The notes: a model not told the origin generated them from the letters alone. A DNA stretch of 64,000 nucleotides from an uncultured Dehalococcoidia bacterium (GCA_964512285.1 CAZEJO010000002.1:32392-96391); one strand, 5' to 3'; positions 14,361 to 63,616 are shown, counted from the stretch's first letter. Numbers and translations: made by a program.

Positions 14361-14426
14361 GAAGGAGCGGCCACTGCCACGCCGACCGCAGCGGCGTTCG
14401 GTCGCCAGGATTGACGGGAGGGTAGC

Positions 14427-15975: not shown

Positions 15976-15977
15976 GG

Positions 15978-24663: not shown

Positions 24664-24665
24664 CC

Positions 24666-24896
24666 ATGTGCCTGGCCATACCGGCGCGGGTTGTCCAGAT
24701 CGACGAAGGTCTAGGCCTGGTGGAGCTAGGGGGAGTCGTGCGTGAAGCGAGCTTCATGCTCCTGCCCGATGCCCAGGTGGGCGACTACGTTCTCCTCCAC
24801 GCTGGCTACGCCCTCCAGAAAGTGGACGAGGCGGAGGCCGAGGAGACCATCCGTCTGTTGACCGAGCTGGCCGAGGACGGGAGGGCAGAAGCATAG
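24666..24896 (+). CDS. hypC: Hydrogenase maturation factor HypC.
   Basis: N-terminal MCLAIP motif; 76 aa. Confidence 0.85.
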   Translation: MCLAIPARVVQIDEGLGLVELGGVVREASFMLLPDAQVGDYVLLHAGYALQKVDEAEAEETIRLLTELAEDGRAEA

Positions 24897-25984: not shown

Positions 25985-25992
25985 GGAAGGCT

Positions 25993-30380: not shown

Positions 30381-30382
30381 CC

Positions 30383-32365: not shown

Positions 32366-32381
32366 GGAGGCGCAGTTAGCC

Positions 32382-32858: not shown

Positions 32859-32904
32859 GGCTGAGACGAAGGCCGAGAGCTCGAGGGCATCAGGGAGGCC
32901 TAGC

Positions 32905-33909: not shown

Positions 33910-33968
33910 CGTCCAGGGCTTTCTGAGGCCGTAACGTGGAGTGACAGGGAGCGAGGAGCAAAGAAGAG

Positions 33969-35453: not shown

Positions 35454-35456
35454 TGA

Positions 35457-35921
35457 TTGCGGACCCTCATCCTGGGTCTTGGCAATCCTATTCTCTGCGA
35501 CGACGCCGTCGGCCTTCAGGCTGCCCGCCAGCTATATGAACTGATAGGTGAAGAGGATGTCGATCTGGTGGAGGCGGCGGTAGCGGGAATGCAGACCGTT
35601 CAGCTTCTCTCTGGCTACGACCGGGCGGTGGTCATCGATGTGGTGCCAGACGAGACGAGAGTGGGCGAGGTCTGGCGCCTCGACACCGACGAGCTGGAAG
35701 ACGTCTCCTCAACATCCAGTCATGGCATCGGCCTGGGGCAGGCCCTGCGCCTGGCCCGGCTGATGGGCCTGCCCGTCCCTGAGCAGATCCTCATCTATGC
35801 TATCGCTGCTGCCGATACCCAGACCTTCGGCGAGACCCTGACGCCTAAGCTCGCGAAAGCCCTCCCCACCATCGTCCGCAGGATCGCCGCCGACCTGGAC
35901 CGCCCCCCGGACCAGGGCTAA
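35457..35921 (+). CDS. Hydrogenase maturation endopeptidase (HycI/FrhD family).
   Basis: MRTLILGLGNPILCDDAVG motif; 154 aa; directly follows the large subunit. Confidence 0.8.
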   Translation: MRTLILGLGNPILCDDAVGLQAARQLYELIGEEDVDLVEAAVAGMQTVQLLSGYDRAVVIDVVPDETRVGEVWRLDTDELEDVSSTSSHGIGLGQALRLARLMGLPVPEQILIYAIAAADTQTFGETLTPKLAKALPTIVRRIAADLDRPPDQG

Positions 35922-44028: not shown

Positions 44029-44538
44029 TTAAGATACTGAGTCGTTAGGGTCGCACCGAAGGTCTTCAAGCACACGCTCCACCACTTCACGCGCTGCCTT
44101 CTCAACCTCCGGGGAGAGCCCTAGGCCAGCCTCGAAGGTCTTCCCTTCAACGCCGTAGACAACAAGCCGCGGCGGAAGCCGGCCGAGCGCCCGCGCAAGT
44201 TCGATGGCCTCAGCAGTGCTAAAGGCGTGAGTGGAGCAATGGGAAAACTCTGTCGGGATGGGCTGCCTGTGGGCATCGAGCCGGTGAAGGATTCCCGGTT
44301 CTGCGCCGGAATGAACCGCATCGATCAGGATAACTGCATCAGCATCCTTCCACGACTCCATCAATGCCGTGCCCTCGCTGCTCTCCTCCAGAACCCGCAC
44401 ATGCTCAGGCGCCCGTTCTCTCAGGCATCGAGCAACGATGAGTCCCACCGCATCATCGTGCCGGTACCGATTGCCGAGGCCGATGACGAGCGTGCCCGAT
44501 CTGCCAGGCGGCATGGCGATTCCTTCAGTCCCGTTCAA
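44029..44538 (-). CDS. Hydrogenase maturation endopeptidase (HoxW/HyaD family), second copy.
   Basis: [16 protein letters not shown]...HSGAEPG motifs. A possible alternative start (44514) would avoid the 14-bp overlap with hydA. Confidence 0.75.
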
Positions 44539-45814
44539 TATGGAGCTTCAAGAAGTGCGCGGAGCAAGAGATGCACGGGTCGTAGTTGCGTATCACCTGC
44601 TCGCACTGCCACGTGAGCTGGTCAGACGGCAGATCCATGTGCTTCGGGACGAACTGCCAGAGGTCGCTTTCGACGCTCTTCTGATTCTGGGAGGTCGGCG
44701 CAACGATCTTCGCGTCGAGGATCACTCCCTGATCATCAACACGGTAGCGATGGTACAAACTGCCGCGCGGCGCCTCGGTGCAGCCGTAGCACGTGGCAGC
44801 GCGCGGCTGAACCTCCACAGCTGGTTTCTCCGGCATCTCGTATTCATCAATGATGCGCAGTGCCTCGTCATAGGCGTAAAGAGTCTCCACACTGCGCACA
44901 ATGATGCTCTTGAACTGATTGCGACAGACGGGCCCAAGCCCGGCATCGCGGGCGGCCTGTTGCGCCAGTGGAGAAAGCTTGTCGAAGTTCAGGTTGTAGC
45001 GCGCCAGGGGACCGACAAGGTAGCTGCCGCGTTCCTTGAGCACAGAGTGCAACGCATTGGTATACGGCACGTGCTCTTCGACGAAGTGGTCATCGTATTC
45101 GCTAAGGGCGATGTCCAACCCCTTGTTGGAAACAAGTCGGCCTTCGGTGATGGCGTATTCGTCTGGGTGGCGCAGGGCGACGAACTCGTAGTCCTGCTCA
45201 AAGTCCGGAAAGGGTAGCGTTGCCGTCCAGCGAACAGTCTCAAGAGCGGCATCGCGCCCCCACTTGAGTTTCTCTATGAAAGGGGCAAGCTCGCGCTTGG
45301 TCGGCGCTCTGTACAATCCACCCACGCGTATGTTGATCGGGTGAACCTCTCTGCCGCCAAGGAGTGCCATAAGCTCATTGCCCACCTTCTTCAACTGCAG
45401 CCCCTTCTGGACGACCTCGGCATGATCCTTCGCCATCTGGATGCCATCGTCGTAGCCGAGGAAGTCGGGGGCATGGAGCAAAAACACATGCAGGGCATGG
45501 CTCTCGATCCATTCACCGCAGTAGATCAGCCGGCGGAGGGCACGGATCTGGGGATCCACAGTCACCCCAAAGGCGCTCTCCATCGCATGGGCCGAGCTCA
45601 TCTGATAGGCGATAGGGCATATGCCGCAGATGCGGGCTGTGATGTCGGGTGCTTCGTTGTACTTGCGGCCGCGCAGGAAGGCCTCGAAGAGACGTGGTGG
45701 TTCCCAAATCTTGAACTTGACGTCCGTCACCGTGTTGTTGCTGATCTTCACATGCAGCGCGCCCTCGCCTTCGACGCGGGCGAGGTAGTTCACCTTTATC
45801 GTCCTACTTTTCAT
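44525..45814 (-). CDS. hydA: [NiFe]-hydrogenase large subunit, group 3b (sulfhydrogenase alpha-like).
   Basis: RICGICP and DPCISCSAH motifs; 429 aa with a short 9-aa C-terminal extension; gene order hydBGDA. Confidence 0.85.
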
Positions 45815-46583
45815 GAGCTACGCTCTCCTCACGAAATGCTTCAGCCCAGGCATTGAATGTACGGAACGCGCGCACTAGGTCCTGTTCCTCCACCCCTAGG
45901 TAGCTCCACCGCCTGCTCAACGAATCCGTATTCGGCGTCTCCATCGGCCCGAAGCACCCGTAACAGCCGCGATAATACGCCGGACAGATAGCGCCACAGC
46001 CGGCCTGGGTTACGGGTCCAAGGCAAGGCGTGCCGTGCGCAACCATCACGCAGACAGTTCCGCGTCTCTTGCACTCGATGCAGACGCTATACAGCGGTAA
46101 GTTTGGTTTGCGTCCATTGAGGAAAGCACTGACGACCTCAAGGAGTTGCTCCTTGTTGATGGGACAGCCGCGTAGCTCAAAATCAACCTGGACGTGGTCG
46201 GCGATGGGCGTTGATGTGGCCAGCGTCTCAATGTATTCCGGCGCGGCGTATACAATGGAGACGAACTCCTGCACGTCCTTGAAGTTACGCAGCGCTTGAA
46301 TGCCACCAGCGGTGGCACAGGCCCCGATGGTAACCAGACACTTCGACCGCCGGCGTATCTGTTGAATCAGCTCAACGTCGTGGGGCGTCGTAATGGAACC
46401 CTCAACCAACGAAAGGTCATAGGGGCCCCTTACCACGGCCCTCGACGCCTCAACAAAGTGGGCGATGTCGACCTGGCCTGCCACAGCGAGCAGTTCGTCT
46501 TCACAGTTGAGAAGGGTCAACTGACAGCCGCTGCAGGAGGCGAATTTCCAGACGGCAAGTTTCGGTTTGCGACTCGGAGGCAA
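45804..46583 (-). CDS. hydD: [NiFe]-hydrogenase small subunit (sulfhydrogenase delta-like).
   Basis: [17 protein letters not shown]...[10 protein letters not shown] (20-kDa NuoB-like fold). Confidence 0.8.
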
Positions 46584-46585
46584 TG

Positions 46586-47461
46586 CTAGACCTCCCGCTT
46601 TGCGAAAAATGGCTGAATCTCAGCGTAGCGGAACACAGGACCGTCTCTACAGACGAAAACGGAGCCAAACTGACAGTGCCCGCAGAAACCAACGCCGCAT
46701 CTCATGTTGCGCTCCATGGAGATGAAGATGTTTTCCGGCTCCACACCCCGGTGCTCTAGCTCGCGCACCGTGAAGCGCATCATCACCTCGGGGCCACAGA
46801 CCAGGGCCACTGTCTGGAAGGGGTCAAACTGGACTCTGGGTATGAGCGTTGTCACAACCCCCACATTGCCGCGGTAACTGGCTGGGGCGGTATCCACCGT
46901 GACATCCACTTCAAGGTCTAATTGGCTGCGCCACTGCTCAAGTTCACGTTTGTAGAGCATGTCCTGGAGCGTTCGCGCACCGTAGACGAGGACGATTCTG
47001 CCGTATTTCTCCCGGTTGGAGAGAAGATGGTACAGCGCTGGGCGCAGCGGCGCCAGCCCGATTCCGCCGGTCACGATCACCACGTCGCTTCCGACGGCTT
47101 CCTCAACGGGCCAGTGATTGCCAAACGGACCGCGCACCCCCAGTACCTCCCCACGCTTCAGCTTGCATAGCGCCTGCGTCACTGTCCCGACCGCGCGCAC
47201 CGTGTGCACGAGCGTCTGAGGTTTGCTGGGGTCGCCACTGATGGAGATCGGCACCTCGCCTACTCCGAACGCATAGAGCATGTTGAACTGCCCGGCGGCA
47301 AATGAGAACTCGCCAGCGCCGTTTGCCGGCTCAAGTTCAAGGGTGAACGTATCGTATGTTTCCTTCCGCACCCTTTGAAGGCAAAAGGGGCTTGGCAGCA
47401 TCGGATCGGAGAGGCCAGCCATTATCGCCTGCTTTTCAAGAGCGAACGCCATCATAGACAT
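46586..47461 (-). CDS. hydG: Sulfhydrogenase gamma-like FAD/NAD(P)-binding [2Fe-2S] oxidoreductase (PyrK-like).
   Basis: FAD/NAD-binding region ...[15 protein letters not shown]...; C-terminal [12 protein letters not shown] cluster motif. Start uncertain: the track ORF begins at 47512, while alternative starts at 47461/47422 reduce the overlap with the upstream cNMP gene. Confidence 0.75.
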
Positions 47462-47906
47462 CCAGAAGCTGCAATCGCGTTGCCTGAAGCCGTTTCTCGA
47501 TGACGTGGGCAATACGCTTCATGAGTTCGTAGCCGAGTTCGTGATCTTCTTCGCATTTGCCGCGAAGGCATGTCCCATCGAGAGCAACAGCCCGTGTCAA
47601 TTCAACCGCTCGGGCTTCGAAACGCCAGCGGTACGGCTCAATGAGCCACGACCAGCCCAGAATATCGCCTTCTCCAAGGGTCTGAATGATGACAGCGCCG
47701 CGATTGGGAGCGAACGTCTCCACTGCCACCGTGCCGTGCCGAATGAGATAGAACAGGTTAGCGGGCTCGCCCTCTCGGAAGATAACCTCCCCTGCTTTGA
47801 ACCGTACATTCGATGCACACCCGGTGAGCAGTTGAAGGTGGGACCTTTCCAGATCCTTGAAGAACGGGTGCTCCCCCAGGATACGTTCAGCATTCTCTAT
47901 AGTCAT
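47436..47906 (-). CDS. Stand-alone cyclic-nucleotide-binding (CAP/Crp effector) domain protein, no HTH.
   Basis: [48 protein letters not shown]...[11 protein letters not shown] gives a cNMP-binding beta-barrel. 156 aa, so too short for a DNA-binding domain. Embedded between hydB and hydG. Confidence 0.6.
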
Positions 47907-47925
47907 CGGTCCTTCCCCTTTTTTG

Positions 47926-49065
47926 TTAGCTCTTACCTACGCTCAGCCGGATCGCGTTCACTTCCTCTGTTATGTCGATTCCAACCGGGCACCAGGTGAT
48001 GCAACGCCCGCAACCCACACAACCCGATGTGCCAAATTGGTCGATCCACGTAGCCAATTTGTGCGTCAGCCACTGGCGATAACGGGCCATCGCTGAGGAA
48101 CGGACGCTGCCGCCGTGGATGTACGAGAAGTCCATAGTGAAGCAGGAGTCCCACTTGCGCCAGCGTTCGGCGTGCTCGCCAGTCAGATCGGTGACATCTT
48201 CCACAGTGGTGCAGAAACAGGTCGGACAGACCATCGTGCAGTTGCCGCATGTTAGGCAGCGCTTGGCGACTTCGTCCCAGTGTGGGCTTTCATAGCTGCG
48301 GTACAGCAAGTTCTCGATGTCCCGCGTGTACATCTTCCGGCCCATTTCGCTGGCGGTTTTCGCCACGATACGTTCGGCTGCCGTCTTTTGCTCTTCACTT
48401 GCCGCTTCATGGGGAACCTCACGGAGAACCTCTGCGCCCAGCTCCGTGCCAACCTCCGCTACGAAGTAGTGGCGGCCTGCCTCCAGCACTTCCGTCAGTG
48501 CAAGATCAAACCCGAACTTCGCCTCCGGCCCGGTATTCATGGAAGCGCAAAAACAGGTGCCGCCAGCATGACCACAGTTAACCGCAACTATGAAGAGACC
48601 TTGGCGCCGTGCTTGGTAGAAGGGGTCCCTGTATTCTCCGCTCAAGAAGATTTTGTCCTGAATGGCGATGGCGTGGATCTCACACGGCCGGACGCCGATA
48701 AACGCAGACTTAGGTACTTCCTCATCCTCTTCCATGATCTGGAACCCGTTACCGCCGGGCTTGGCTCGCCACAGGCGCACGATCGGCGGGTGGAGAAACT
48801 TCTTCCAGGAGTCGGGTCCGACGGTGTAGCCAAAGAGTGCCTCATCGTTGCGTCTCTTGAGACGGTAGGTACCACCGTCCTGCTCGTCTGTCCATCCGAC
48901 AGGCAGATCCGCAACGGAGGTTAGATCGTCGTACACGATAGCACGGTCGCGAACTGTTGGCCCCCTGACCCGATAGCCTCTCTTCTCCAGAGTATCAAGC
49001 AACTGCTGGAGATGATCACGCTCCAAAGCGGCCAACTCCCTGCCCTGTGGAGAGAGCCCTGTCAT
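47926..49065 (-). CDS. hydB: Sulfhydrogenase beta-like / AsrA-like iron-sulfur subunit.
   Basis: Two C-rich [4Fe-4S] motifs ([28 protein letters not shown]). Proposed start MTGLS at 49065 with AAGAGGTG RBS; the track ORF starts at 49140. Confidence 0.75.
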
Positions 49066-49234
49066 ACTGACGCACCTCTTATCCTGAAGATGAGGCCTGC
49101 ACCTGTGGCAGAGAGCAAGAGCATGGCCCGCAAAAGCCAAGAATGTAGACTACGGACAATTCCTAGCGCCGGTCCCAATAGCTGCATAGCCATCTACAAC
49201 CCTCGCACACCCAGAGGAGAAAAGCGAGGATTCA

Positions 49235-53062: not shown

Positions 53063-54379
53063 TTGAAAGCCATGCAAGGTTCTCGCCTAGGTCCGACGCG
53101 ACATCATCTCTGCTCCTTTTGTGGCAAGAGCGAGGAGCAGGTACGCCACCTTATTGATGGCCCCGGCTCTGTCTACATATGCGACGAGTGCGTCCAGCTT
53201 TGCCAACAGATTCTACAGGAGAAGATGATTCAGCGACCCAGCGCTAGGGTGGCCCTGCAACGGGTGCCGCCCCCTAAGATCATCTATGATCAGCTCGGTG
53301 AGTACGTGGTGGGCCAGGAGCAGGCCAAGAAGGTGCTGTCGGTGGCCGTCTATAGACACTACAAGCGCATCTCCAACAGCGAACGACTCGAGGACATCGA
53401 ACTGGAGAAAAGCAATATCCTGCTTCTGGGCCCCACCGGCTGCGGCAAGACCCTTCTCGCCCGCACCCTGGCCAAGATTCTCGATGCCCCCTTCACCATC
53501 GCCGATGCCACTACCTTGACCGAGGCGGGCTATGTGGGCGAGGACGTGGAGAACATTCTCCTGCCCCTTATCCGGGCGGCAGACTACGATATCACGCGCG
53601 CCGAGCGGGGAATCGTCTACATCGACGAGATCGACAAGATCGCCCGCAAGAGCGGCTACAACCCCTCCATCACCCGCGACGTGTCAGGAGAGGGAGTCCA
53701 GCAGGCGCTGCTGAAGATCATCGAGGGGTATGTGGCCAATGTGCCGCCTCAGGGTGGTCGGAAGCATCCTCAACAGGACTTCATCCAGATCAACACGGCC
53801 AACATCCTCTTCATATGCGGTGGCGCCTTCCTAGAACTGGATGCAATCATCGATAGGCGCGTGGGCGCAAGCAGACGCTCCCTGGGCTTCCGGGCGGGCC
53901 TCGCTCAAGAGGACTCGACTAAGACCCGCGATGAGATCCTCACTCATGTGGCGCCTGATGACCTCTTGGAGTACGGCCTTATCCCCGAGTTCGTGGGACG
54001 CCTGCCGGTGATTGCGCCTCTGCAATCGCTGGACAAGCAGGCCATGATGGCTATCCTTACCGAGCCCAAGAACGCCCTGGTGAAGCAGTTCCAGCGCTTC
54101 TTCGCTCTGGACGGGGTAGAGCTAGTATTCACCGAGGATGCGCTGGAGGCGGCGGCTGAGGAGGCCATGCGGCACAAGATGGGCGCCCGCGGCCTGCGCA
54201 CGGTGGTGGAGGACACCCTGTTGGACGTGACGTACGAGATCCCCTCCCACCCCAACATCAAGAAGTGTGTGGTCAATGCTGAAGCCATACTGGGTCACCG
54301 GAAGCCTATCCTACTTAGCGCTGACGGCCAGGCGGTGGAGCCGTCGGAGGAAGAGGAAGCCCGCGCCGAGACAGCCTAG
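53063..54379 (+). CDS. clpX: ATP-dependent Clp protease ATP-binding subunit ClpX.
   Basis: N-terminal zinc-binding CSFCGK...CDEC, Walker [15 protein letters not shown], pore loop GYVGEDVEN, sensor motifs; 438 aa. Confidence 0.9.
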
Positions 54380-54623
54380 GCTGGCTCCCCTAGCCATTTA
54401 GCCACCCGCCCTACCACGTAGCTCTGACTCCGCTCAGATCTTGAGGGGATAACCCTACGGCACAGTCGTCAAGTGCTGATTCCAGTAGCTCATAGACCAC
54501 ATCCCTTGCCCCCAGCAATTGTATGCTCGACCGCTGAGCGAACCCCGACAGCCTGTCTGAGAAGCAAGAGGCCGCCCATTCGGCGGCCTTCGCCTTGCAT
54601 GCGTTGTGACTGTTAGTCAGAGA

Positions 54624-54901
54624 TGGAGCGGGAGACGGGGATCGAACCCGCGACAACCTGCTTCGAAGGAAGAAGGTCATCTGATTGGGCAGCGCTAATT
54701 GCTAAGCCCCCAGATTCGAAGATCGGGGTGAAAACGGGGCAAAAGCAGGGTGCAAATGAGCTCTCACCGAAACGGGCGGCAGGTCCTGACCCTGCTCCAT
54801 CGGCAATCGAGCGACCCCATACAGCCCTCGAAGGGATGTCAGGTGCCTTTCGCCGGCTTCCTCGGTTTCGCGTCGAACAATCTAAGCACCCGCGGCTGCC
54901 A
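54624..54901 (-). ncRNA. ssrA: tmRNA-like (ssrA) gene, ~278 nt; atypical, and the tag reading frame is unresolved.
   Basis: Minus strand 5' GCGGGUGCUUAGAUUGUUCGACGCGAAACCGAGG... resembles the tmRNA 5' end / helix 2 (E. coli GGGGCUGAUUCUGGAUUCGACGGGAUUUGCGAAACCCAAGG). 3' end ...GCGGG-UUCGAUC-CCCGU-CUCCCGC-U-CCA is a tRNA-like T-arm + acceptor with encoded CCA. Located next to clpX. Short length, a U-U mismatch, G3-C rather than G3-U in the proposed acceptor, and no clean ...LAA* tag frame lower confidence. Confidence 0.5.
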
Positions 54902-55025
54902 GGCCCATAATGAGGGCGGCTCGCCCTCGCCGCAGGCACGTGGCACGCCAGGAGGCGGTGGCTGGTAGGCCTTGCCGACGCCCTGCATGCGGTTACCCCG
55001 CCGGACATGGTAGTATCTCTCTGAG

Positions 55026-55226
55026 ATGCCGATCTACGAGTACGTCTGCTCCTCATGCGGCTACCGCTTCGAGAAGCTGGTGCGGAGCATTGGTTCCGGA
55101 CAGCCGAAGACGCGTTGCCCCCAGTGTCACAAGGACAACGCGCAACGGGCCGTCTCATCCTTCGCCGTAGGCGGCGGGGCATCGCCGGGCTTGCCAGTCG
55201 AACCTGGCCCAGTTGGCGGCGGTTGA
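55026..55226 (+). CDS. FmdB-family zinc-ribbon regulatory protein.
   Basis: [16 protein letters not shown]...TRCPQCH CxxC...CxxC zinc ribbon typical of the FmdB family; 66 aa. Confidence 0.7.
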
Positions 55227-55386
55227 AGCCTGACCCGATGCTGATCCCGTGGGGATCGGGTCGCTGGCCAACGCCATGGTGTGCTTCGTGGTGGCGATGG
55301 GTGCGGGTAACAGTGCCAGCCAGGGTGATGCCCAAAGATCTCATAAAGCTTCTGACACTGAAAGGTGCCAAGTGGCGCAGATAGAT

Positions 55387-55659
55387 GTGCGAACGACGCC
55401 TGAGGGTGAAGGCTGGGCCTTCCAGGTGACTGTGTCAGGGGGCGGCGGCCAAACTAGCCACCGCGTCACTATGAGCCGCAACACCTACCAGCAGCTAACC
55501 GGCGAGGTGTGCACTCCAGAGGAACTTGTGCGGAGATCGTTTGAGTTCCTCCTAGAACGCGAGCCTAGGGAATCCATCCTCCGCGAGTTCGAGATCACGG
55601 TCATTTCGCGGTACTTCCCAGACTACGAACGCGAGATCAGCAAACGCATTCGCCCTTGA
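55387..55659 (+). CDS. Hypothetical small protein.
   Basis: Open frame with GTG start; no recognisable motif; weak RBS. Confidence 0.3.
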   Translation: MRTTPEGEGWAFQVTVSGGGGQTSHRVTMSRNTYQQLTGEVCTPEELVRRSFEFLLEREPRESILREFEITVISRYFPDYEREISKRIRP

Positions 55660-55972
55660 CGCTGGTCGAGGCTCCTGCCTCACGGGGCCGCACACTATGT
55701 CTTCTCTGTTATTGATAGGCTGAGCGAAGCGAGCACGGAAAGTACTAGTCCGTGTCTGTGAACTCGAAAGCCTCGAGGCGACGTACTGCGAGGAGGAGAG
55801 CGAGGACAGCGGTGAGTGGTCTTGCGACTTGCCCTGACAGGGCCAAACCTGCAAAGCGTGGCGCTAGGCCTCATCACCTAGAGTGCCACGCAGCGATTCC
55901 TCAAGACAATGGGAACGGATCTGCCCAGCCGATCCCCCTGTTTAACCGTCAGATGACGTAGTAGACTAGTAG

Positions 55973-56662
55973 TTGGAGACAAGGGAGGACTCGATGGAGA
56001 AGATTCGCGTTCTGCTGGCCGAGGACCATGTAGTGGTGCGTGAGGGCACGCGCGAACTGATACAGCAAGAGCAGGATATGGAAGTGGTGGGCGAGGCCGG
56101 GGACGGGGAAGAAGCCATAGAACTGGCCGCCGAGCTTCGCCCAGACGTGGTGATAATGGATATCGCCATGCCCAAGGTCAACGGCATCGAGGCAACCAAG
56201 CGGATCAAGGAACTCTACCCGGCCACCGCCGTATTGATACTGACCGCCTACGATAATGAGCAGTACATCTTTGCCCTTCTTGAGGCGGGGGCGGCAGGGT
56301 ACTTGCTGAAGAATGTGCGCCGCAGCGAGCTCATTGATGCCGTGCGCGCAGTGCGCGCGGGCGAGTCAGTCCTTCATCCCGTGGTAACCCAAAAGGTCCT
56401 AGAGCGGCTCCGGAGCGGTGAAGGTAGGCCAGGTGAAAAGGGAGGGAGTGGATACATCCTCAGTGAACGGGAGATGGAGGTCCTCCGCCTGGCGAGCAAA
56501 GGCATCAGCAACAAGGACATTGCCAGAGAACTTGTGGTTAGCGTGCGGACGGTTCAGGCTCACCTGGGTAATATTTTCAACAAGCTGGGGGTGGGTTCGC
56601 GAACGGAGGCTGTGCTGCACGCGTTGAGACGAGGCTGGTTCAGCCTGGACAAGGAGATCTAA
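55973..56662 (+). CDS. NarL/FixJ (LuxR-type) response regulator, paralog of 49235..49927.
   Basis: [41 protein letters not shown] receiver domain; C-terminal Lux[40 protein letters not shown]. Confidence 0.8.
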
Positions 56663-56718: not shown

Positions 56719-58725
56719 CTAAGCTGGCACCTCGACAGTTACCGTTGTGCCTTTGTCCAATTCCGACTCTAGTGTCAGCTTGCCACCGACAAGGCGAACT
56801 CGCTCTTCCATCCCGGCCAGGCCAAGCTTGCCAACGTTGGTCAGGTCTGCCGTGTTTCGAGGAGCCTTGAAGCCCTTGCCATTGTCTCTGACGCTGAGGG
56901 TGGTCTTGCCGTGATCGAATTCCAGCGTAACCCAAGCCCGCGAGGCCTCGGAGTGTTTCCAAACGTTCCTTAGCGCTTCCTGAGCGACGCGGAAAAGGAC
57001 CAGCTCCACCTCGGGGGAGAAGCGGCGCTCCGCGCCCATCACCGCCATGCCGATAGTTATGTCGAAATGCTTTTCCAGGTCAGAGATGAGCCACTCTAGG
57101 GCAGGCAACAGGCCCAGATCATCTAGTACGGACGGACGCAGGTCCTGGCTGAAGCGACGCACACCTTCCAGTATCTTGTCGACCCGTGCCTGTATCTCCT
57201 CCAGAAGCTTGAGGTCTTGCTTTGACAGTTTCCTCGGTACGGAAGTCAAACCGTCCAGCTGACGGGACAGGGCCACCAGTTCTTGAGCTGTCTCGTCATG
57301 AAGCTCACGGGCGATGCGCTTGCGCTCTTCTTCTTGGGCTTTGGTGACCTGGTGAAGGAAAAAGCGCAGGTTCGCCTGCATCCGCTTTTCCTCGGTGATA
57401 TCGCGGGCGATAAGCTGATAGGCTCTGGACTGACCATCGCCAGTAATCAGGCTTGCGCTCAGACTGAGACTGGCCTGCGAGCCGTCCTTTCTTCTGATTT
57501 CGCCTTCATAACGCCTGTTTACCATCCCGCCTATGAGCAGCTTGCGCCGAACCTCCCTTGTCCGCTGAAGAGCCTCCCCGGAGAGAAAATCCTCGACGTT
57601 CATGCCAACGAGTTCTTCTCGCGAATAGCCGGTCAGCTTGACACAGGCCTCATTGGCCATGATGATCTCGCCATCTAGATTCTGAACCCAGATGGCATCC
57701 TCGGCGCTTTCAAACAGGTCGCGATAGTTCTTCTCCGATATTCGCAGCTGTTCGGCCATCAACCGCTCTTCCTGATAGAGGCGGGCATTCTCCACGGCGA
57801 TGGCGACAACGTTTCCGCCAGCACAAAGGAGATCTATCTCCTCAGCAGGAAAGCGTCTGGGATGACGTGCGGCCACGCAGAGAGTGCCCAACACCCTCCC
57901 TTTGGACTTGAGAGGGACGATAAGCTGAGCTTGAATCCCCTCCTGACTCACTGCCGCCCTCGTCAGTCTAGGGTCTTGAGAGGCATCTTCTACCACTAGT
58001 GGCTCGCCGGTCTGAGCCACTAGTCCATTGAAACCCTCGCCCACCTTCATCCTCTTCACGCTGGCAGCGGATATCTCAGATATGCCTCGATAGGTTTCCA
58101 GGACAAGCTCATCGGTCGCCTCATCGATCAGGAATACCAAGATGGTCTCTAGGTTCGCCACTTCCATCACCTTGTCGGCGGCCAGATTCAGGATATCTGG
58201 CAGCTCCAGAGACTGGCTCACTATGCTAGAGATGGCATTGACGGCGGCGAGCTGCCTCTCACTCATCTGGATGACTTCTAGCTGCGCCTGAAGCTGCTGC
58301 TGGGCCGCTTGCAGTCTCGAAAGCACCTCTTCGCGGCGCCCTCTTTCGGCCCGGAGTCGCTCAAAGCCAACGTTGATCACGGCACCCGCAGCGATAACGC
58401 CACCCACCTCCACCAGGGCATCGGAGCGATAGTCGGAGATAGCGAGGGCCCTTGGCAGCATGATGGCGAGAGCCAATGCCGAGGCAGCTAGCCCCGCCCT
58501 CATCCCGAACAGGAAGCCGACGTAGGTGATGGGTAGCAGCATGAAGACGCGCTCGATTGCGTGCCGCTCCAGGCCCAGCACAGAACCCGGGTCCTCTATG
58601 TGCAGGAAGGGGAGCAACTCATCCGGGTAATGCATGGGGATAGCCACTAAGAACATGGCTACCGCAAGCAAGAGTTCGAAGCTGCGGATACCCTGTGCCA
58701 CCTGGTCTGTGGACTGCCGTCTCAT
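56719..58725 (-). CDS. Membrane-anchored GAF-PAS sensor histidine kinase (HisKA_3/NarX-type + HATPase_c).
   Basis: N-terminal TM helices nearly identical to the 50932 paralog, then GAF, PAS, H-box ARELHDETAQELVAL (HisKA_3) and HATPase (GKGF...GLAGMEERV...GGKLT). Confidence 0.8.
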   Translation of the reverse strand: MRRQSTDQVAQGIRSFELLLAVAMFLVAIPMHYPDELLPFLHIEDPGSVLGLERHAIERVFMLLPITYVGFLFGMRAGLAASALALAIMLPRALAISDYRSDALVEVGGVIAAGAVINVGFERLRAERGRREEVLSRLQAAQQQLQAQLEVIQMSERQLAAVNAISSIVSQSLELPDILNLAADKVMEVANLETILVFLIDEATDELVLETYRGISEISAASVKRMKVGEGFNGLVAQTGEPLVVEDASQDPRLTRAAVSQEGIQAQLIVPLKSKGRVLGTLCVAARHPRRFPAEEIDLLCAGGNVVAIAVENARLYQEERLMAEQLRISEKNYRDLFESAEDAIWVQNLDGEIIMANEACVKLTGYSREELVGMNVEDFLSGEALQRTREVRRKLLIGGMVNRRYEGEIRRKDGSQASLSLSASLITGDGQSRAYQLIARDITEEKRMQANLRFFLHQVTKAQEEERKRIARELHDETAQELVALSRQLDGLTSVPRKLSKQDLKLLEEIQARVDKILEGVRRFSQDLRPSVLDDLGLLPALEWLISDLEKHFDITIGMAVMGAERRFSPEVELVLFRVAQEALRNVWKHSEASRAWVTLEFDHGKTTLSVRDNGKGFKAPRNTADLTNVGKLGLAGMEERVRLVGGKLTLESELDKGTTVTVEVPA
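58235..58659. repeat. Second copy of the near-identical ~430-bp tract (see 51803..52227).
   Basis: Direct comparison of the two regions. Confidence 0.85.
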
Positions 58726-58749: not shown

Positions 58750-58947
58750 CTAGGCGGAGGGTTCTTCAAGCTCGTCGTGCAAGTCGAGCCATCCCGTCTT
58801 GAGCCCATAGAGCACAGACTCGCCAATCGCATCCATGTCCCGTTCGCGCCGAATGAGTTCGCGGGTGCCTTCCCGCACCACAATACTATCCTCAGCAAGC
58901 AGAACGCTGATCTTCTCCATGGCGCCTTCCTCCAGCACCTCAGCCAC
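58750..58947 (-). pseudogene. In-frame internal-deletion remnant of a LuxR-type response regulator (N-terminal 43 aa joined to the C-terminal ~20 aa).
   Basis: [43 protein letters not shown] | SVLYGLKTGWLDLHDELEEP. Compare with the intact regulator at 49235: [43 protein letters not shown]...EAILYGLRRGWFRLEDTP. Confidence 0.55.
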
Positions 58948-59197
58948 TGACCATCATAACCCTCTCTAGAGATCGCTTCAATTGGCAGGACAGCGTAGGC
59001 AGAATCGCCTACATCCCTGCCAAAGAGACGTAGGTGACCCCGCTTCTCATAGGCATTTGCTCAGAAGAGAGACAGGTGCTTTCTCCGAGAGGAGATTAGG
59101 CCTTCGCTCGGATGGCAGGTGGTTGGCACAAGTATAGGCTGAAATTGGATCGAGGAGATTGGCCCGGAGAAGGTCCAGCAGACAGGAGGTTAGGAAG

Positions 59198-59713
59198 ATG
59201 GCAACGACGGCTTACTTGCTGATTAGAGCGTCGGAAGCTATCCGGAACAACGGGTATCTCAAGGCGCTCGAAGACTTATGGGCACTCCCTGAGGTCGAGT
59301 ACGTGGAGCCAGTATCGGGCCTGTATGACTGTGTGGCGAGGGTAGAGGCACCGATAAGGCTCATCTTTCTGGTCCACAAGATCATGGCGAAGAGCTGGAT
59401 CGAGCGTGTGCACGTCCTCAGGGTTGACCAGCCAGTCGCAACAGCCCTGGAGTCCGAGGAAGCTCGGACGGCGAGACTGATGCGGCAGCGCGAGATCATC
59501 AAGGCTTACCTTGCTGGCCTTCCGCGTCCGACCGGACCAGAGCCAGAGCTCCATGCTGGTCATGCTGGTCCTCCTGGCTGGGAGAAGGCCTGGATGACCA
59601 GACTGAAGCGGCAGCGCGAGATCATCAAGGCTCACTACCGGGAGCGCCGCGCGGCGTCGCAGGCTGACACTCCTCCAGCGGAGGAAGGGCAGGACATCGC
59701 CAAAGCCGCCTAA
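59198..59713 (+). CDS. Small protein: stand-alone AsnC/Lrp-type RAM domain + tandem ARLMRQREIIKAY / TRLKRQREIIKAHY repeats, with a -IAKAA C-terminus.
   Basis: MATTAYLLIRASE...LWALPEVEYVEPVSGLYDCVARVEAP is a RAM-domain signature. The C-terminal half duplicates the 52670 protein. RBS AGGAGG. Confidence 0.55.
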   Translation: MATTAYLLIRASEAIRNNGYLKALEDLWALPEVEYVEPVSGLYDCVARVEAPIRLIFLVHKIMAKSWIERVHVLRVDQPVATALESEEARTARLMRQREIIKAYLAGLPRPTGPEPELHAGHAGPPGWEKAWMTRLKRQREIIKAHYRERRAASQADTPPAEEGQDIAKAA

Positions 59714-59723
59714 AGCTCATTCG

Positions 59724-60290
59724 ATGGAGGCGATGGAGATGAGGGTAAGAAGCTTCGAAACAGCGCTCCGGACTAAAGTGGAGACGGAAGGAGGCGGCAG
59801 CATGACACCTGTTCATCCGCCACGGAGGATGAGAGCGGTGGGTTACGTGAGACAAGGCTTCGGGGAGATGGACAGGAAGCGGACCAGCCCCGAGGAGCAA
59901 AAAGCAAGGATAGCTGGCTGCGCCGATGCCCATGGCTGGCACCTCGTCCAGACCTATGAAGACATTGGCTGGTCAGGAGGCGACCTGAGCAGACCGGGCC
60001 TACCTGAGCTGCTCTCCAGGTCAGACTTCGAGATCCTGATAGTAGATAGGACGGATCGCCTGACGGGCAAGAAGAAGGACCTGGACTTCTTACTCGCCCT
60101 GCTCGAGAAGCGCGGCATCACTTGTGTGCCTGCCACCTGGTCGTGGGAGCCTCTGGCTCAGTACATGAGATGCTGGTACCGCCTGAAGGCCGATCCTGTA
60201 TATGCCTTGCTCGACTCATCGCCTGTAGTAACTGACTCGGCCCTGGCCAAAGACGATGCGTCTGCAGGTGCAGCGAAGGCCGCAGCCTAA
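59724..60290 (+). CDS. Serine-recombinase (resolvase/invertase) catalytic-domain-like protein, probably degenerate; no DNA-binding domain.
   Basis: RAVGYVRQ...TSPEEQKARIAGCADAHGWHLVQTYEDIGWSGGDLSRPGLPELL...FEILIVDRTDRLTG parallels the resolvase N-domain (YARVSTxxQ...cadahGw.lv..y.D.g.SG....RPgl..ll........d.liV...DRL.R). The catalytic Ser region is disrupted by an insertion. 188 aa. Confidence 0.35.
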   Translation: MEAMEMRVRSFETALRTKVETEGGGSMTPVHPPRRMRAVGYVRQGFGEMDRKRTSPEEQKARIAGCADAHGWHLVQTYEDIGWSGGDLSRPGLPELLSRSDFEILIVDRTDRLTGKKKDLDFLLALLEKRGITCVPATWSWEPLAQYMRCWYRLKADPVYALLDSSPVVTDSALAKDDASAGAAKAAA

Positions 60291-60356: not shown

Positions 60357-62510
60357 GTGATGGCTTCCAGGGAGATTTTCTGGAACATTCAATTCGGCGA
60401 GATCGTCTATCTGCTTGCGTTCATAGTAGTAGCTATTGCCGCCTACGCAGTGTACCGACGTGTTCGGCTCTGGCGGCTCGGCAGCAAGGACGACAGGCTA
60501 AGCAACCTACCGAACAGGATATGGACGGTCTTCGTCAAGACGATGGCCGATGGCCTATGGCACAAACGCATTGTACGCGCTCGCTATGCAGGGATAATGC
60601 ACCTGCTCATCTTCGGCGGGTTTGCTCTCCTTCTGATCGGACCGCTCCTGGACTTCACCAGCGATCACTTCGTCCACTTCCTAAAAGGGAATGTCTACTT
60701 AGGGGTCTCTCTAATGCTAGACGTGGGCGGGCTGCTAGTCCTTGCCGGACTCGGCATGGCCGCCTACCGCAGGTATGTCATCAAGCCAGCGAAACTGGAT
60801 AACCTGCTAGACGATGCCCTTACCCTGACGCTGCTCGCCGTAATCATCATCACCGGTTACGCCGTGGAGGGGCTGCGAATCGCCACAACCGAACTGGACA
60901 CCCACTCTGACTGGGCAGTGTGGTCGCCTGTAGGATTCGTCTTCGCCAAAGCGTTCAGCGGCCTTGGAGAGGACGTGAACTTGAGCTTGCACAAGGGGCT
61001 GTGGTGGGGCCACATGCTGATATCCCTTGGGACCATCGGCTACGTCTTCCTCAGCTTCTCGAGACTGGCCCACATCTTTGTCGCCCCGCTGAACATGTTC
61101 CTACGGTCTACGGACGGCAAGGGCGTCCTCAAACCTATCGAGATTAGCGAGGAGACCGTTGAGACCCTTGGAGCAGCAAAGCTCCAAGACCTGACCTGGA
61201 AGGATCTGCTCGACCTCGACGCTTGTACGCGGTGTGGCCGGTGTCAGGAGGTCTGCCCCGCCTATCTCAGTGGCAAGCCGCTTTCGCCCAAGAAACTAAT
61301 GCAGAAGCTGAAGACTCACTTGGTCGAGCAGGGACCCGCCCTACTCCGAGGCAAGAGCAACGGACAGCCTGAAGCAGACGATGGTTGTCCCGCCCTAATT
61401 GGTGACGTGGTAACCGAAGATGAGTTATGGGCATGCACCACATGCGGTGCCTGCGAGGAGGCGTGCCCTGTCTTCCTAGATCCCATCGGCAAGATCATTG
61501 CCATGCGTCGGAACCTGGTGCTGGAACAAGGCAAGATCTCCGGCACTGTCATGGCGAGTCTCAGATCAACTCAAGACAGGGGCTGTCCCTGGAAGGGGGC
61601 ATCAGCCTCACGAACGGATTGGGCTTCCGGCTTGCCTGTGAAAACTCTTTCCGACAATGGTCATGTCAAGCTCCTATTCTGGGTAGGATGCACCGAAGCC
61701 GTCGTCGAGCAGACTATGAACATACCCATCGCCATGACAAAGATCCTGGATGCGGCAGGGGTAGACATCGGCTTCCTTGGCTATGAGGAATCGTGCTGCG
61801 GCCACTTCGCACGCCGTCTCGGTGACGAGTACCTGTTCCAGTGCCTAGCGAAGCAAAACATCGAGACTCTAAAGCGCTACAACGTGGAGAAGATCGTTAC
61901 CGCCTGCCCGCATTGCTACCACACCCTGAAGTATGAATACCCGCAGTTCGGGGGAAAGTTTGAGGTGGTTCACCACACGGAGCTGCTCCTTGAGCTGATC
62001 AATGAGGGCAAGCTGAAATTCAACAGGGAACTCAACAAGACGGTGGCCTATCAGGACCCCTGCTATCTCGGCCGATACCATAACATGTACGAGGCCCCGA
62101 GGAAGATCCTCGCAGCCATCCCGGGTATCAAAGTAGTGGAAATGTCCCGCTCTCGCTCTGAGAGCCTATGCTGCGGCGCCGGCGGAGGCCGCATGTGGAT
62201 CGAGGAAGAACCCGATCAGAGAGTGAACCGATTGCGCAGCCAAGATGCGATCGCAACAGGGGCGGACATAGTCGTTACAGCCTGCCCCTATTGCCTCCAG
62301 ATGCTCCAGGATGGAATAGGTGGACTGGAACTGGAGAAGCCTGTGGAGGTGCTCGACCTGGTGCAGTTGTTAGAGGACTTAGTGACGGTTCCGGTGGAGC
62401 CTGCGCCTGCCTTGGAAGTTGACGCCGCCACTGATGGCCAGCAGTCGAGTGCCGCTGGCAGCAGCCAAGGCGATCAAGAGAGCGTAGGGGTCGAAAGGTC
62501 GGGGAGTTGA
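60357..62510 (+). CDS. Membrane-bound heterodisulfide-reductase-like fusion: N-terminal NarI/HdrE/DsrM-type di-haem cytochrome b domain + C-terminal HdrD-like domain (2x[4Fe-4S] + two CCG domains).
   Basis: aa 1-250 has 5-6 TM helices with conserved His (IMHLLIFGGF, WWGHMLISLG, FSRLAHIFVAPLNMF). It also has CTRCGRCQEVCP and CTTCGACEEACP ferredoxin motifs. CCG domains VGCTEAV...CCGHFARR and DPCYLGRYH...CCGAGGG...CPYCLQMLQDG. 717 aa. Confidence 0.7.
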   Translation: MMASREIFWNIQFGEIVYLLAFIVVAIAAYAVYRRVRLWRLGSKDDRLSNLPNRIWTVFVKTMADGLWHKRIVRARYAGIMHLLIFGGFALLLIGPLLDFTSDHFVHFLKGNVYLGVSLMLDVGGLLVLAGLGMAAYRRYVIKPAKLDNLLDDALTLTLLAVIIITGYAVEGLRIATTELDTHSDWAVWSPVGFVFAKAFSGLGEDVNLSLHKGLWWGHMLISLGTIGYVFLSFSRLAHIFVAPLNMFLRSTDGKGVLKPIEISEETVETLGAAKLQDLTWKDLLDLDACTRCGRCQEVCPAYLSGKPLSPKKLMQKLKTHLVEQGPALLRGKSNGQPEADDGCPALIGDVVTEDELWACTTCGACEEACPVFLDPIGKIIAMRRNLVLEQGKISGTVMASLRSTQDRGCPWKGASASRTDWASGLPVKTLSDNGHVKLLFWVGCTEAVVEQTMNIPIAMTKILDAAGVDIGFLGYEESCCGHFARRLGDEYLFQCLAKQNIETLKRYNVEKIVTACPHCYHTLKYEYPQFGGKFEVVHHTELLLELINEGKLKFNRELNKTVAYQDPCYLGRYHNMYEAPRKILAAIPGIKVVEMSRSRSESLCCGAGGGRMWIEEEPDQRVNRLRSQDAIATGADIVVTACPYCLQMLQDGIGGLELEKPVEVLDLVQLLEDLVTVPVEPAPALEVDAATDGQQSSAAGSSQGDQESVGVERSGS

Positions 62511-63616
62511 CCATGACGAAGGAAGAGAGTTGGGTCTCAAGCAGATACTCGCCGGACGATGCTGAGGATTGCCTAGGGCTTCTGGCCAAGATCTGGGGCG
62601 ACAGCGAGCTCGCGTCCCCAGCCTATCATGACTGGCAGTGCCAGCGAAGCCCGGCGGGCGCAGGTATCGCCACCCTGGCGCGAGGAGTGGAAACGGGCCG
62701 ACTTGTTGGCCAGGCAGTAACGATACCTGTCAGTGTAAGGCTTTCCGGCAAGGCACGCACCGCTGGGCTTTCCTTGAACCCAGTGGTGGATCCCGGCTAC
62801 GAAAACGGTGACATCTTCGTCGGTCTAATGAGGGATGCCTGTGCCTTCTCAGCGGAGGCGGGTATCGCCTATTCCTATGGCTTCCCTGACCAACTATCCT
62901 ATTCGAAGTTTGTGAACAAGGCTGGGTTCAGGGATATCGGCTCGGTTCCCCTCCTCATCAGGCCGCTGAACCCAGAGCGCCTGGCTTCGAAGGCAACACA
63001 CAGCCTCGTTCTAGGAAAGACGGCCTCCGTTGCCAGGAAGATCTGGCGCACTCCTGCACCCGCTCCGCGACAAGAGGTTCCACCCGATCTGGAGATATCG
63101 GAGGTTGGCTCCTTCGACGACTCCTTTGCCGTCTTCTGGGACAGAATCCAGCACCGATTCCCCGTCATGGTGGTCAGGGATCCCGCCTACCTCAATTGGC
63201 GGTTCAGCGACGCGCCGACAAGACAGTACATGACCTTCGTCGGCAGATCGGACGGGAAGATCCGAGGATTTGCCGTCCTTCGCATTGCGCCGCTGGGCCC
63301 ATTCTCGGCAGGCCTGATCGTGGATCTGATGGTGGAGACCAGCGCAGAGGGCCGCCTGGTGGGCCGCCTCCTGATCGACCGAGCGTACTCGTATTCAAGA
63401 GACCACGATTTGGACCTCGTCGCCAGCCTGGCCCTGCGCCACACCGATGAATTTCGACTTCTCCGGTCAAAGGGCTTCTGGGTATGTCCAAAATTCCTGC
63501 AGCCTCAGCCCTACCGCCTCGTTGTTCGCTGCCACGATGAGGAGGCCAGCCCCAGCCGCCTGGCCTATGACCTACGGAACTGGTTCGTCACGATGGGGGA
63601 CTACGATGCAGTGTAG
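62507..63616 (+). CDS. GNAT-like acyltransferase family protein (FemAB/BioF2-like duplicated GNAT fold), function unknown.
   Basis: Two GNAT-like halves (GFRDIGSVPLLIRPL...; KIRGFAVLRIAPLGPFSAGLIVDLMV...). Start overlaps the preceding gene (ATGA). Confidence 0.4.
   Translation: MTMTKEESWVSSRYSPDDAEDCLGLLAKIWGDSELASPAYHDWQCQRSPAGAGIATLARGVETGRLVGQAVTIPVSVRLSGKARTAGLSLNPVVDPGYENGDIFVGLMRDACAFSAEAGIAYSYGFPDQLSYSKFVNKAGFRDIGSVPLLIRPLNPERLASKATHSLVLGKTASVARKIWRTPAPAPRQEVPPDLEISEVGSFDDSFAVFWDRIQHRFPVMVVRDPAYLNWRFSDAPTRQYMTFVGRSDGKIRGFAVLRIAPLGPFSAGLIVDLMVETSAEGRLVGRLLIDRAYSYSRDHDLDLVASLALRHTDEFRLLRSKGFWVCPKFLQPQPYRLVVRCHDEEASPSRLAYDLRNWFVTMGDYDAV

Follow-up and report, generated by a model that had tools for sequence, protein, structure and literature searches.

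A fused cytochrome b and iron-sulfur protein of an uncultured Dehalococcoidia bacterium resembles a heterodisulfide reductase but probably belongs to the EtfD/EMO family

Positions 60357-62510 (+ strand) of a 64,000-nucleotide stretch of DNA from an uncultured Dehalococcoidia bacterium (GCA_964512285.1, CAZEJO010000002.1:32392-96391; this whole stretch is called the window below) hold an open reading frame (ORF) which, in the ORF list of the window, encodes 717 amino acids counted from a GTG codon. The ATG at 60360, its second codon, has an AGGAG sequence six nucleotides upstream and is the likelier start compared with the GTG at 60357; the product from there is 716 amino acids long, and a database protein of that length (P0001) begins at the same ATG and is 100% identical. 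Residue numbers in this report follow the 717-residue version with the GTG start. Pfam searches, hydropathy, secondary structure from an AlphaFold2 (AF2) model and foldseek comparison showed that the product is one chain, in which an N-terminal NarI-like domain with five transmembrane (TM) segments is followed by an HdrC-like domain for two [4Fe-4S] clusters and an HdrB-like domain with two CCG repeats. This bears out an earlier note, made from the DNA sequence alone, which had described a 717-residue single chain joining a cytochrome b-like domain to an HdrD module of two ferredoxin-type clusters and two CCG domains. In Pfam, the CCG model matched in two stretches (1.1e-34), a dicluster ferredoxin domain covered residues 284-374, and Nitrate_red_gam covered residues 123-251. 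The AF2 model, built from an alignment of 50 homologues, had a predicted local distance difference test score (pLDDT) of 69.7 and a predicted TM-score (pTM) of 0.66. The gene and its parts are as follows.

60357-62510, + strand: gene probably of the EtfD/EMO family (ORF list; identity to P0001; AGGAG; match to structure 9OJN)
60357-61142, + strand: NarI/HdrE-like five-helix haem b membrane domain, residues 1-262 (hydropathy; AF2 helices; Pfam Nitrate_red_gam; hhalign)
61179-61571, + strand: HdrC-like region for two cubane clusters (Pfam Fer4_8 and related models; HdrC matches in the PDB; mapping of the ligands of EtfD clusters D4 and D3)
61644-62384, + strand: HdrB-like domain for the non-cubane clusters (2 x CCG), residues about 430-676, with capping His519 (Pfam CCG; invariant columns; mapping of EtfD clusters D1 and D2)
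62391-62507, + strand: low-complexity, predicted-disordered C-terminal tail, residues 679-717 (pLDDT below 50)

The fusion of a membrane domain to an Hdr-like module is commonplace, since 2,475 cluster representatives matched the protein at E<=1e-30, and the best 150 representatives of clusters formed at 50% identity all aligned with it over the full length.

A phmmer search of solved structures aligned the protein with chain A of 9OJN (E=2.9e-100, 340 bits) in two stretches spanning residues 18-695. This entry is the cryo-electron microscopy structure of Mycobacterium smegmatis EtfD (MsEtfD; Courbon et al., EMBO J 2026, PMC13083937), a membrane enzyme that passes electrons from the electron transfer flavoprotein (ETF) of beta-oxidation to menaquinone (PMC13083937); knockout of etfD abolishes growth on fatty acids (genetics in Beites et al., 2021, PMC8593149). 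EMO, the ETF:methylmenaquinone oxidoreductase of Syntrophus aciditrophicus (SaEMO), is known from a structure at 2.0 A and from a complex with ETF (Kosian et al., bioRxiv 10.64898/2026.08.18.745454); its reaction is reversible in Syntrophus, supporting enoyl-CoA respiration, and in the words of Kosian et al., who cite Agne et al. for the point, EMO occurs in all fatty-acid degraders that contain menaquinone or methylmenaquinone. Identity between the Dehalococcoidia protein and MsEtfD was 34% overall and 24% in the TM domain. By foldseek, the AF2 model aligned with 9OJN over 738 columns (E=3.3e-33, TMq 0.76, TMt 0.74), and each of the remaining matches was confined to one domain, the CCG part for LutA and HdrB and the membrane part for NarI. 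For ligand mapping, the MsEtfD sequence was rebuilt from the HMMER alignment, agreed in identity and number with all 27 residues that the EtfD paper quotes, and was aligned by MAFFT with our protein and 86 family members. All of the haem, cubane and non-cubane ligands given in the EtfD paper were conserved, and all were invariant across 50 homologues, with the following correspondence.

Proximal haem b, axial histidines: H82 and H239 here, H78 and H241 in MsEtfD
Distal histidine: H219 here, H223 in MsEtfD
Haem propionate partners: R139 and R295 here, R137 and R306 in MsEtfD
Cubane cluster D4: C290, C293, C296 and C370 here, C301, C304, C307 and C422 in MsEtfD
Cubane cluster D3: C300, C360, C363 and C366 here, C311, C412, C415 and C418 in MsEtfD
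Cluster D1: C445, C480, C517 and C520 here, C503, C538, C581 and C584 in MsEtfD
Cluster D2: C569, C605, C606, C643 and C646 with H519 here, C637, C672, C673, C709 and C712 with H583 in MsEtfD

In the membrane domain, hydropathy and AF2 secondary structure placed five TM segments at residues 14-39, 76-104, 111-142, 150-177 and 205-248 (approximate limits), with short connecting helices after TM1 and TM4. A strongly basic loop, RVRLWRLGSKDDR, follows TM1 and argues for a topology in which the N-terminus is outside and the Fe-S part is cytoplasmic (N-out/C-in). The Pfam Nitrate_red_gam match barely passed its threshold (24.6 against 22.9 bits), and phmmer with the TM domain alone found no match in the PDB even at E<=10. 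Profile-profile alignment with E. coli NarI by hhalign gave a probability of 93.7% (E=2e-7), and a profile of residues 1-262 matched the TM region of MsEtfD with E=9.7e-7 for a PDB-sized database, while none of 200 shuffled controls scored. The five-helix cytochrome b fold is shared with the membrane domains of NarI, DsrM and QmoC, the last of which gave a weak match over residues 5-178; those domains dock a separate subunit, whereas the one described here is fused to its Fe-S module. Three TM histidines, H82 in TM2 and H219 and H239 in TM5, are invariant in the family and represent three of the four haem ligands of NarI. By hhalign, H219 is equivalent to NarI H187 at the distal haem and H239 to NarI H205 at the proximal haem, and in the alignment to NarI there was no counterpart of H66, the second distal-haem ligand. 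This three-histidine pattern is common to all EMO-like TM domains (Kosian et al., bioRxiv 10.64898/2026.08.18.745454), with H82, H239 and H219 corresponding to H87, H251 and H233 of SaEMO. MsEtfD retains the distal histidine and carries no distal haem (Kosian et al., bioRxiv 10.64898/2026.08.18.745454), and the sequence found here would fit one, two or three haems. The earlier note had predicted a "5-6-TM di-haem" domain with paired histidines; five segments and the proximal pair are there, while a sixth segment is not, the distal site offers a single histidine as in all EMOs, and "di-haem" is more than the sequence can tell. The two TM5 histidines (window 61011-61073) are 20 residues apart in the clade of our protein and in a related clade at 50-53% identity (24 sequences); the spacing is 18 in E. 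coli NarI and in the remaining 64 sequences. In the AF2 model, the TM5 helix is predicted to break at residues 233-235. His69, on the cytoplasmic connecting helix, is invariant.

The Fe-S motifs were then compared with those of HdrB. The ferredoxin motifs read C290-x2-C293-x2-C296-x3-C300 and C360-x2-C363-x2-C366-x3-C370, the first CCG domain has the arrangement C445...C480-C481-G...C517-P-H519-C520, and the second reads C569...C605-C606-G...C643-P-Y-C646. All ten HdrB-type cysteines (C445, C480, C481, C517, C520, C569, C605, C606, C643, C646) are thus present, and this, together with an overall architecture equal to HdrE plus HdrD, is what would favour the reading as a fused HdrED, in which electrons from quinol would cleave a (hetero)disulfide at the non-cubane clusters; each of the two characterised enzymes lacks one of the ten, MsEtfD having Thr as the second CCG-1 residue and SaEMO having Gly as the last CxxC residue. 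Where our protein reads CPHC, however, HdrB reads C-N-G-C, with Gly in place of the histidine. His519 is the equivalent of MsEtfD H583 and SaEMO H534, which at the proximal non-cubane cluster take the place where heterodisulfide reductase binds coenzyme M (CoM) and are the reason given by the authors of both structures for clusters that carry electrons and are not catalytic (PMC13083937; bioRxiv 10.64898/2026.08.18.745454). The C517-P-H519-C520 motif was found in 50/50 closest homologues and in 86/86 members of a wider set, the latter count being partly by construction, as one of the two search patterns contained CPHC. The HdrB and HdrC chains in the PDB scored 25-28 bits (HdrB about 28) against 340 bits for EtfD. 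HdrDE of Methanosarcina also combines a NarI-like haem b subunit with an HdrC/HdrB-like HdrD that has ten cysteines in its CCG domains, and the EtfD/EMO structures overlay on HdrDE models (PMC13083937; bioRxiv 10.64898/2026.08.18.745454), but HdrDE is made of two polypeptides, has an open catalytic site for CoM and coenzyme B (CoB) where our protein has the histidine cap, and uses methanophenazine, not menaquinone; in phylogeny, HdrDE clusters apart from EMO (Kosian et al., bioRxiv 10.64898/2026.08.18.745454). The closest relatives of the gene lie at eight loci in Dehalococcoidia metagenome-assembled genomes (MAGs), at 56-90% identity and each taken with 10-kb flanks (the close clade), and no conserved gene for a thiol or disulfide carrier, whether for CoM/CoB, DsrC or another, was found near them. 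The protein therefore most likely resembles a heterodisulfide reductase without being one: the disulfide-reductase function proposed in the earlier note is improbable in view of the full-length homology to EtfD/EMO, the His519 cap, the lack of a conserved thiol carrier and the linkage of the family to etfAB and acyl-CoA dehydrogenase genes described below.

Models of other CCG proteins gave scores under their cutoffs. The best NCBIfam match was thiol:fumarate reductase TfrB, which speaks for a disulfide-type reaction but at 174 bits reaches less than half of its cutoff of 385; the Hdr models lay further below (CoB_CoM_SS_B 32.5 against 345, CoB_CoM_SS_C 38.7 against 160, hetero_SS_HdrB 20.9 against 450). 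Weak matches were also obtained with subunits of flavin-dependent dehydrogenases, namely LdhH (115 bits), GlpC (82.9) and GlcF (56.1), and LutA was the second structural match for the CCG domain, so that the protein might be the membrane anchor and electron exit of a GlpC-, GlcF-, LutA- or LdhH-like dehydrogenase for glycerol-3-phosphate, glycolate or lactate. We regard this as very improbable: the scores are far under the cutoffs of 800 (LdhH), 278 (GlpC) and 333 (GlcF), no inspected locus had an adjacent subunit of an FAD-dependent glycerol-3-phosphate, glycolate or lactate dehydrogenase, and among the structural matches none of the GlpC/GlcF/LutA/LdhH-type proteins carries a fused NarI-like domain. 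The CCG domains did not group with glycerol-3-phosphate or lactate dehydrogenase subunits; such a grouping is what the earlier note had named as counting against its proposal. The least probable of the readings considered is a DsrMK-, HmcEF- or TmcBC-type sulfur module acting on DsrC or TusA. In its favour, a CCG protein is joined to a cytochrome b of NarI type, as in DsrMK, and in one close-clade relative (locus L001) genes for TusA and DsrE lie 7 kb upstream; these are missing from the other seven loci, Pfam scans of the window found no dsrAB, dsrC or dsrJOP, dsr genes were likewise missing from the conserved gene context, and the models scored far too low (DsrK 59.9 against 400, HmcF 71.8 against 750, TmcB 81.2 against 735 bits).

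Within the EtfD/EMO family, the ligands of the distal non-cubane cluster vary. The MsEtfD cluster is a linear [3Fe-4S] with Thr replacing the second CCG-1 cysteine (PMC13083937), and that of SaEMO is a [4Fe:5S] in which Gly replaces the last cysteine of the first CxxC, giving CPHG (Kosian et al., bioRxiv 10.64898/2026.08.18.745454). Among the 86 homologues, the second CCG-1 residue was Thr in 38, Cys in 33, Asn in 10, Ser in 4 and His in 1, while CPHG occurred in two (L013 and L051). Judged by these sequences, the set found here, all ten cysteines plus the histidine, is a common but structurally uncharacterised third variant, the Thr and Gly types alone having been seen in structures. Because it keeps C481 at the position of Thr539 in MsEtfD, our protein is predicted to hold a full non-cubane [4Fe-4S] cluster and not a linear [3Fe-4S]. 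MsEtfD (Rv0338c / MSMEG homologue; PDB 9OJN) is otherwise alike in its single chain, five TM segments, haem b on TM2 and TM5 histidines, two cubanes, two CCG domains and CPHC cap; it differs in its disordered C-terminal region (about 265 residues against a tail of 39), in the TM5 histidine spacing (18 against 20), in Gln at the position of His69, and in its host, an aerobic actinobacterium as opposed to an anaerobic member of the Dehalococcoidia. SaEMO shares the three-domain architecture, the size (706 against 717 residues), an intact CCG-1, the capping histidine and the three TM histidines, and differs in having Gly where our protein has Cys520. A homologue from a Syntrophus MAG (L068) was tried as a numbering proxy for SaEMO residues E22, H109, A101 and E187, but the offsets were inconsistent (6, 5, 5 and 20) and it reads CPHC, not CPHG; it is no strict orthologue of SaEMO, and the quinone-site and twin-haem residues of SaEMO were not transferred. 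FadF of Bacillus subtilis and DgcB of Pseudomonas aeruginosa are EtfD homologues in ETF-dependent fatty-acid and dimethylglycine catabolism, respectively; compared here by their description in the EtfD paper (PMC13083937), they are without the cluster D1 cysteines, all of which our protein has.

The gene context of the wider family was examined at 80 loci of GTDB species representatives with 36-53% identity to our protein, again with 10-kb flanks, from Chloroflexota, Thermodesulfobacteriota, Geobacter relatives, Chlorobaculum, Methylomirabilota, Acidobacteriota, Bacteriovorax and others. The results showed an etfB-etfA pair in the flank at 19 of these loci, mostly less than 1 kb away and in several cases as an operon of etfB, etfA and the EMO-like gene. 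The flanks add up to about 1.17 Mb and hold 19 pairs; set against our own estimate of only a few pairs of etfAB in several Mb of genome, this is an enrichment of well over an order of magnitude. In the Chloroflexota sister clade (about 53% identity; L007/L008, protein P0100), a ferredoxin-domain etfA, etfB and an acyl-CoA dehydrogenase gene lie next to the EMO-like gene and run convergently with it. In a neighbour-joining tree, the clade of our protein was sister to the ETF-linked clade that contains L007, with L013 (the CPHG sequence, also ETF-linked) as the next outgroup, and the group as a whole sat with Eubacteriales, Thermodesulfobacteriota (L030, ETF-linked) and the Syntrophus MAG sequence. 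Together, the domain architecture, the conservation of every ligand, the full-length likeness to EtfD in sequence and fold and the linkage to etfAB across the family make it probable, at roughly 70%, that the protein is a member of the EtfD/EMO family, an ETF:(methyl)menaquinone oxidoreductase. It is a new, uncharacterised member of a family already known from genetics, biochemistry and two structures.

In the proposed mechanism, reduced ETF would dock through EtfB on the cytoplasmic CCG domain, its FAD swinging to about 12 A from both non-cubane clusters. Single electrons would enter these two clusters (C445/480/481/517/520, and C569/605/606/643/646 capped by His519), which would act as an electron wire and not as a disulfide-cleaving site, and would move on to the first cubane [4Fe-4S] (C300/360/363/366), the second cubane [4Fe-4S] (C290/293/296/370) and the proximal haem b (His82/His239, its propionates bound by Arg139 and Arg295). 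From there they may pass a distal haem site at His219 and would finally reach menaquinone in the membrane. For this last step, the MsEtfD model places the quinone directly beside the proximal haem (PMC13083937), and for SaEMO a route through the distal haem or haems to a periplasm-side site, coupled to the proton-motive force, has been proposed (Kosian et al., bioRxiv 10.64898/2026.08.18.745454). We slightly favour the energy-coupled, periplasm-side route as the one that our protein may use, because the host is of an anaerobe type with two cytoplasmic [NiFe] hydrogenases and the protein clusters with Syntrophus-type and not actinobacterial sequences. The partner ETF, the type of quinone, the number of haems and the physiological direction are here what we infer by analogy with the characterised enzymes.

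The genes around the EMO-like gene in the window are the following.

59724-60290, + strand: serine-recombinase-domain protein of 188 amino acids (Pfam Resolvase; TP901-1 integrase by sequence and fold)
62507-63616, + strand: double-GNAT acetyltransferase, likely start ATG 62513 (Pfam Acetyltransf_9 and Acetyltransf_1)
56719-58725, - strand: GAF-PAS-HisKA_3 histidine kinase (ORF; same kinase by orthologues in L001, L002, L004, L090 and L094)
55973-56662, + strand: LuxR-type response regulator, full length (ORF; 63% identity to the L001 regulator)
58750-58947, - strand: 65-residue N-terminal remnant of a second LuxR-type regulator (68% identical to the full copy over 38 residues)

The recombinase-domain gene lies directly upstream of the EMO-like gene on the same strand at 8/8 close-clade loci, down to 56% identity, with products of 150-190 amino acids. 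Its product matches the catalytic domain of TP901-1 integrase (E=2.5e-7 by sequence; TMt 0.70 by fold), consists of the catalytic domain only without a DNA-binding domain, and has 'YVRQG/D' in place of the nucleophile motif 'YxRVS', so that the Ser nucleophile is missing. The family comprises 118 clusters, all at least 55% identical and 150-225 residues long, and appears to be restricted to this Dehalococcoidia lineage; ten or more of its members come from contigs equal in length to those of EMO-like matches. Proteins of about 160 residues encoded directly upstream of the EMO-like gene in the 50-53% clade (L005 9491-9970, L007 4325-4810, L009 6231-6734) were considered as further members and ruled out; they have an N-terminal double CxxC zinc-ribbon and hydrophobic segments, no Pfam match, and are Zn-ribbon membrane proteins instead. 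The kinase, a LuxR-type regulator and an orthologous double GNAT are usually found near the EMO-like gene in the close clade, the GNAT of the window being 50-73% identical to those of L001, L002, L004 and L094. Genes of acyl-CoA metabolism recur as well, with enoyl-CoA hydratase within 10 kb in L002 and L004 and AMP-binding ligases in L004, L090 and L094. Locus L090 comes from a near-identical strain whose EMO-like protein (P0122) falls in the same 90%-identity cluster as ours, and there, at 13358-16529 and thus beyond the right end of the window, the GNAT is followed by a cupin, an acetyl-CoA synthetase (ACAS_N/AMP-binding) and a SatP-type (Gpr1_Fun34_YaaH) acetate channel. The neighbours of this type in L090, L002, L004 and L094 are loosely consistent with acyl-CoA metabolism. 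Since a promoter and terminator scan of 58.7-64 kb gave nothing exceeding shuffled expectation, operon structure around the gene was deduced from spacing only.

A second CCG protein is encoded about 30 kb upstream of the EMO-like gene, in a cluster at 29229-35921 (+ strand) that comprises, in order, a soluble protein with Fer4 and two CCG domains, an HdrA2-like protein (860 bits, under its cutoff of 1100), MvhD, the small and large subunits of a Vhu/Mvh-type [NiFe] hydrogenase and a maturation protease. The soluble protein (29229-30380) is a paralogue of the soluble half of our protein (36% identity, E=1e-87). Its CCG domain scored 229 bits against EtfD (9OJN) and 26-30 bits against HdrB, and its motif reads S-P-H-C, which retains the capping histidine and has lost the first CxxC cysteine; going by these comparisons, this 'HdrD-like' subunit is EtfD/EMO-type rather than HdrB-type. 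The earlier note had seen the membrane protein as the complement of this HdrA/HdrD-like system, an idea that we could not support: unrelated genes and a second hydrogenase lie between the two, and no positional or comparative tie between the cluster and our gene was found. What stands is that the soluble HdrD-like protein is the EtfD-like paralogue just described. The second hydrogenase, a cytoplasmic [NiFe] enzyme of sulfhydrogenase type (44525-49140, - strand), has a ShyA-like large subunit, a small subunit, an NAD-binding/FeS subunit and a Fer4_22 subunit. With both sets, the window encodes at least two group-3 hydrogenases in 25 kb, and the maturation genes hypF, hypD and hypE are present too (44525-49140, - strand, and 22354-27033, + strand).

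Several observations weigh against the EtfD/EMO assignment, of which ETF as the partner in this particular clade is the weakest link. An etfAB pair within 10 kb was found by tblastn at none of the eight close-clade loci, nor was an acyl-CoA dehydrogenase gene, and Pfam scans and tblastn detected neither in the 64-kb window, where the Pfam scans also revealed no menaquinone-biosynthesis genes. The conserved neighbours of the close clade, that is, the dead recombinase-domain protein, the two-component system and the GNAT, do not point to ETF. An EMO-type CCG domain alone does not prove an ETF partner, because the histidine-bearing soluble paralogue works with HdrA/Mvh, and the retention of all ten HdrB-type cysteines sets our protein apart from either characterised EMO. 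The protein was placed among ETF-linked EMO-like sequences and MsEtfD in a tree that contained no HdrD/HdrE, DsrK, TfrB or SaEMO, and several EMO-like subclades of that tree hold Dehalococcoidia, so that our protein may be a paralogue that serves some other partner. The rival that we take most seriously, unlikely as it is, holds that the scaffold is of EMO type and the wire to the quinone is the same, but that in this clade the cytoplasmic partner is another flavoprotein or redox protein; this could be the one that also serves the soluble CCG protein of the HdrA/Mvh cluster, or the recombinase-domain protein could have a part in it. The absence of etfAB from the close clade (0/8 against 19/80 in the wider family), the strictly conserved pairing with the dead-recombinase gene, the soluble paralogue encoded with HdrA-MvhDGA and the service of known homologues in differing catabolic routes, such as DgcB in dimethylglycine catabolism, all agree with it. 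ETF genes, however, often lie away from the gene of their acceptor, the function of MsEtfD is tied to ETF, and the sister clade is ETF-linked, while the serine-recombinase fold has no known redox cofactor and the HdrA cluster is 30 kb away behind unrelated genes. A more specific version, which we consider doubtful and a shade less likely still, is that an EMO-type enzyme of this lineage was uncoupled from etfAB and recruited into a module with the dead recombinase-domain protein, the GAF-PAS two-component system and the double GNAT, with a non-ETF partner that is perhaps the same as that of the soluble CCG protein of HdrA-MvhDGA. If this were true, H2-driven flavin-based bifurcation and the quinone pool would meet at one flavoprotein or acceptor, and the earlier idea of two routes to one acceptor would be rescued, with an acceptor that is not a disulfide.

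The assignment to EtfD/EMO matters for metabolic reconstruction. Public names for such proteins, "(Fe-S)-binding protein" and "Fe-S oxidoreductase/nitrate reductase gamma subunit", mis-describe the family, and a literal reading of them invites thiol/disulfide or sulfur respiration into reconstructions of uncultured Dehalococcoidia. The EtfD/EMO assignment instead predicts oxidation of acyl-CoA, or another ETF-dependent oxidation, tied to the menaquinone pool, and in an anaerobe with cytoplasmic hydrogenases it could mean a reversible, Syntrophus-like redox loop. For the specialist, the points of interest are the distal cluster variant with all cysteines plus the histidine, the constant pairing with a degenerate recombinase and the EMO-type soluble CCG subunit in an HdrA/Mvh cluster.

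Further observations concern gene order in this lineage and its relatives. In the Chloroflexota lineage of P0108 (52% identity), the EMO-like gene is followed immediately by a separate gene for a 336-residue protein with CCG domains only (L005 12139-13149, L006 3670-4680), after which a molybdopterin oxidoreductase gene comes in L006. In the window, the regulator remnant at 58750-58947 (- strand) occupies the site of the full regulator of the relatives, directly upstream of the kinase, and the full-length regulator (55973-56662, + strand) stands on the opposite side of the kinase and on the opposite strand. The GNAT gene, which lies upstream of the kinase in the relatives, is directly downstream of the EMO-like gene in the window and in L090. 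The moved regulator and GNAT represent a local rearrangement specific to this species. Synteny with L090 breaks at about 54400-55970 of the window (L090 1-5635), where the window has ClpX (53063-54379) and L090 has a gene for a 1987-residue alpha-2-macroglobulin-like protein; a scan of 53-64 kb for tRNA genes at this break found none. Finally, a 184-residue ORF at 59159-59713 (+ strand), without a Pfam match and with an internal repeat (ARLMRQREIIKAY / TRLKRQREIIKAH), stops 10 nucleotides short of the recombinase-domain gene; among the relatives, only L090 has it.

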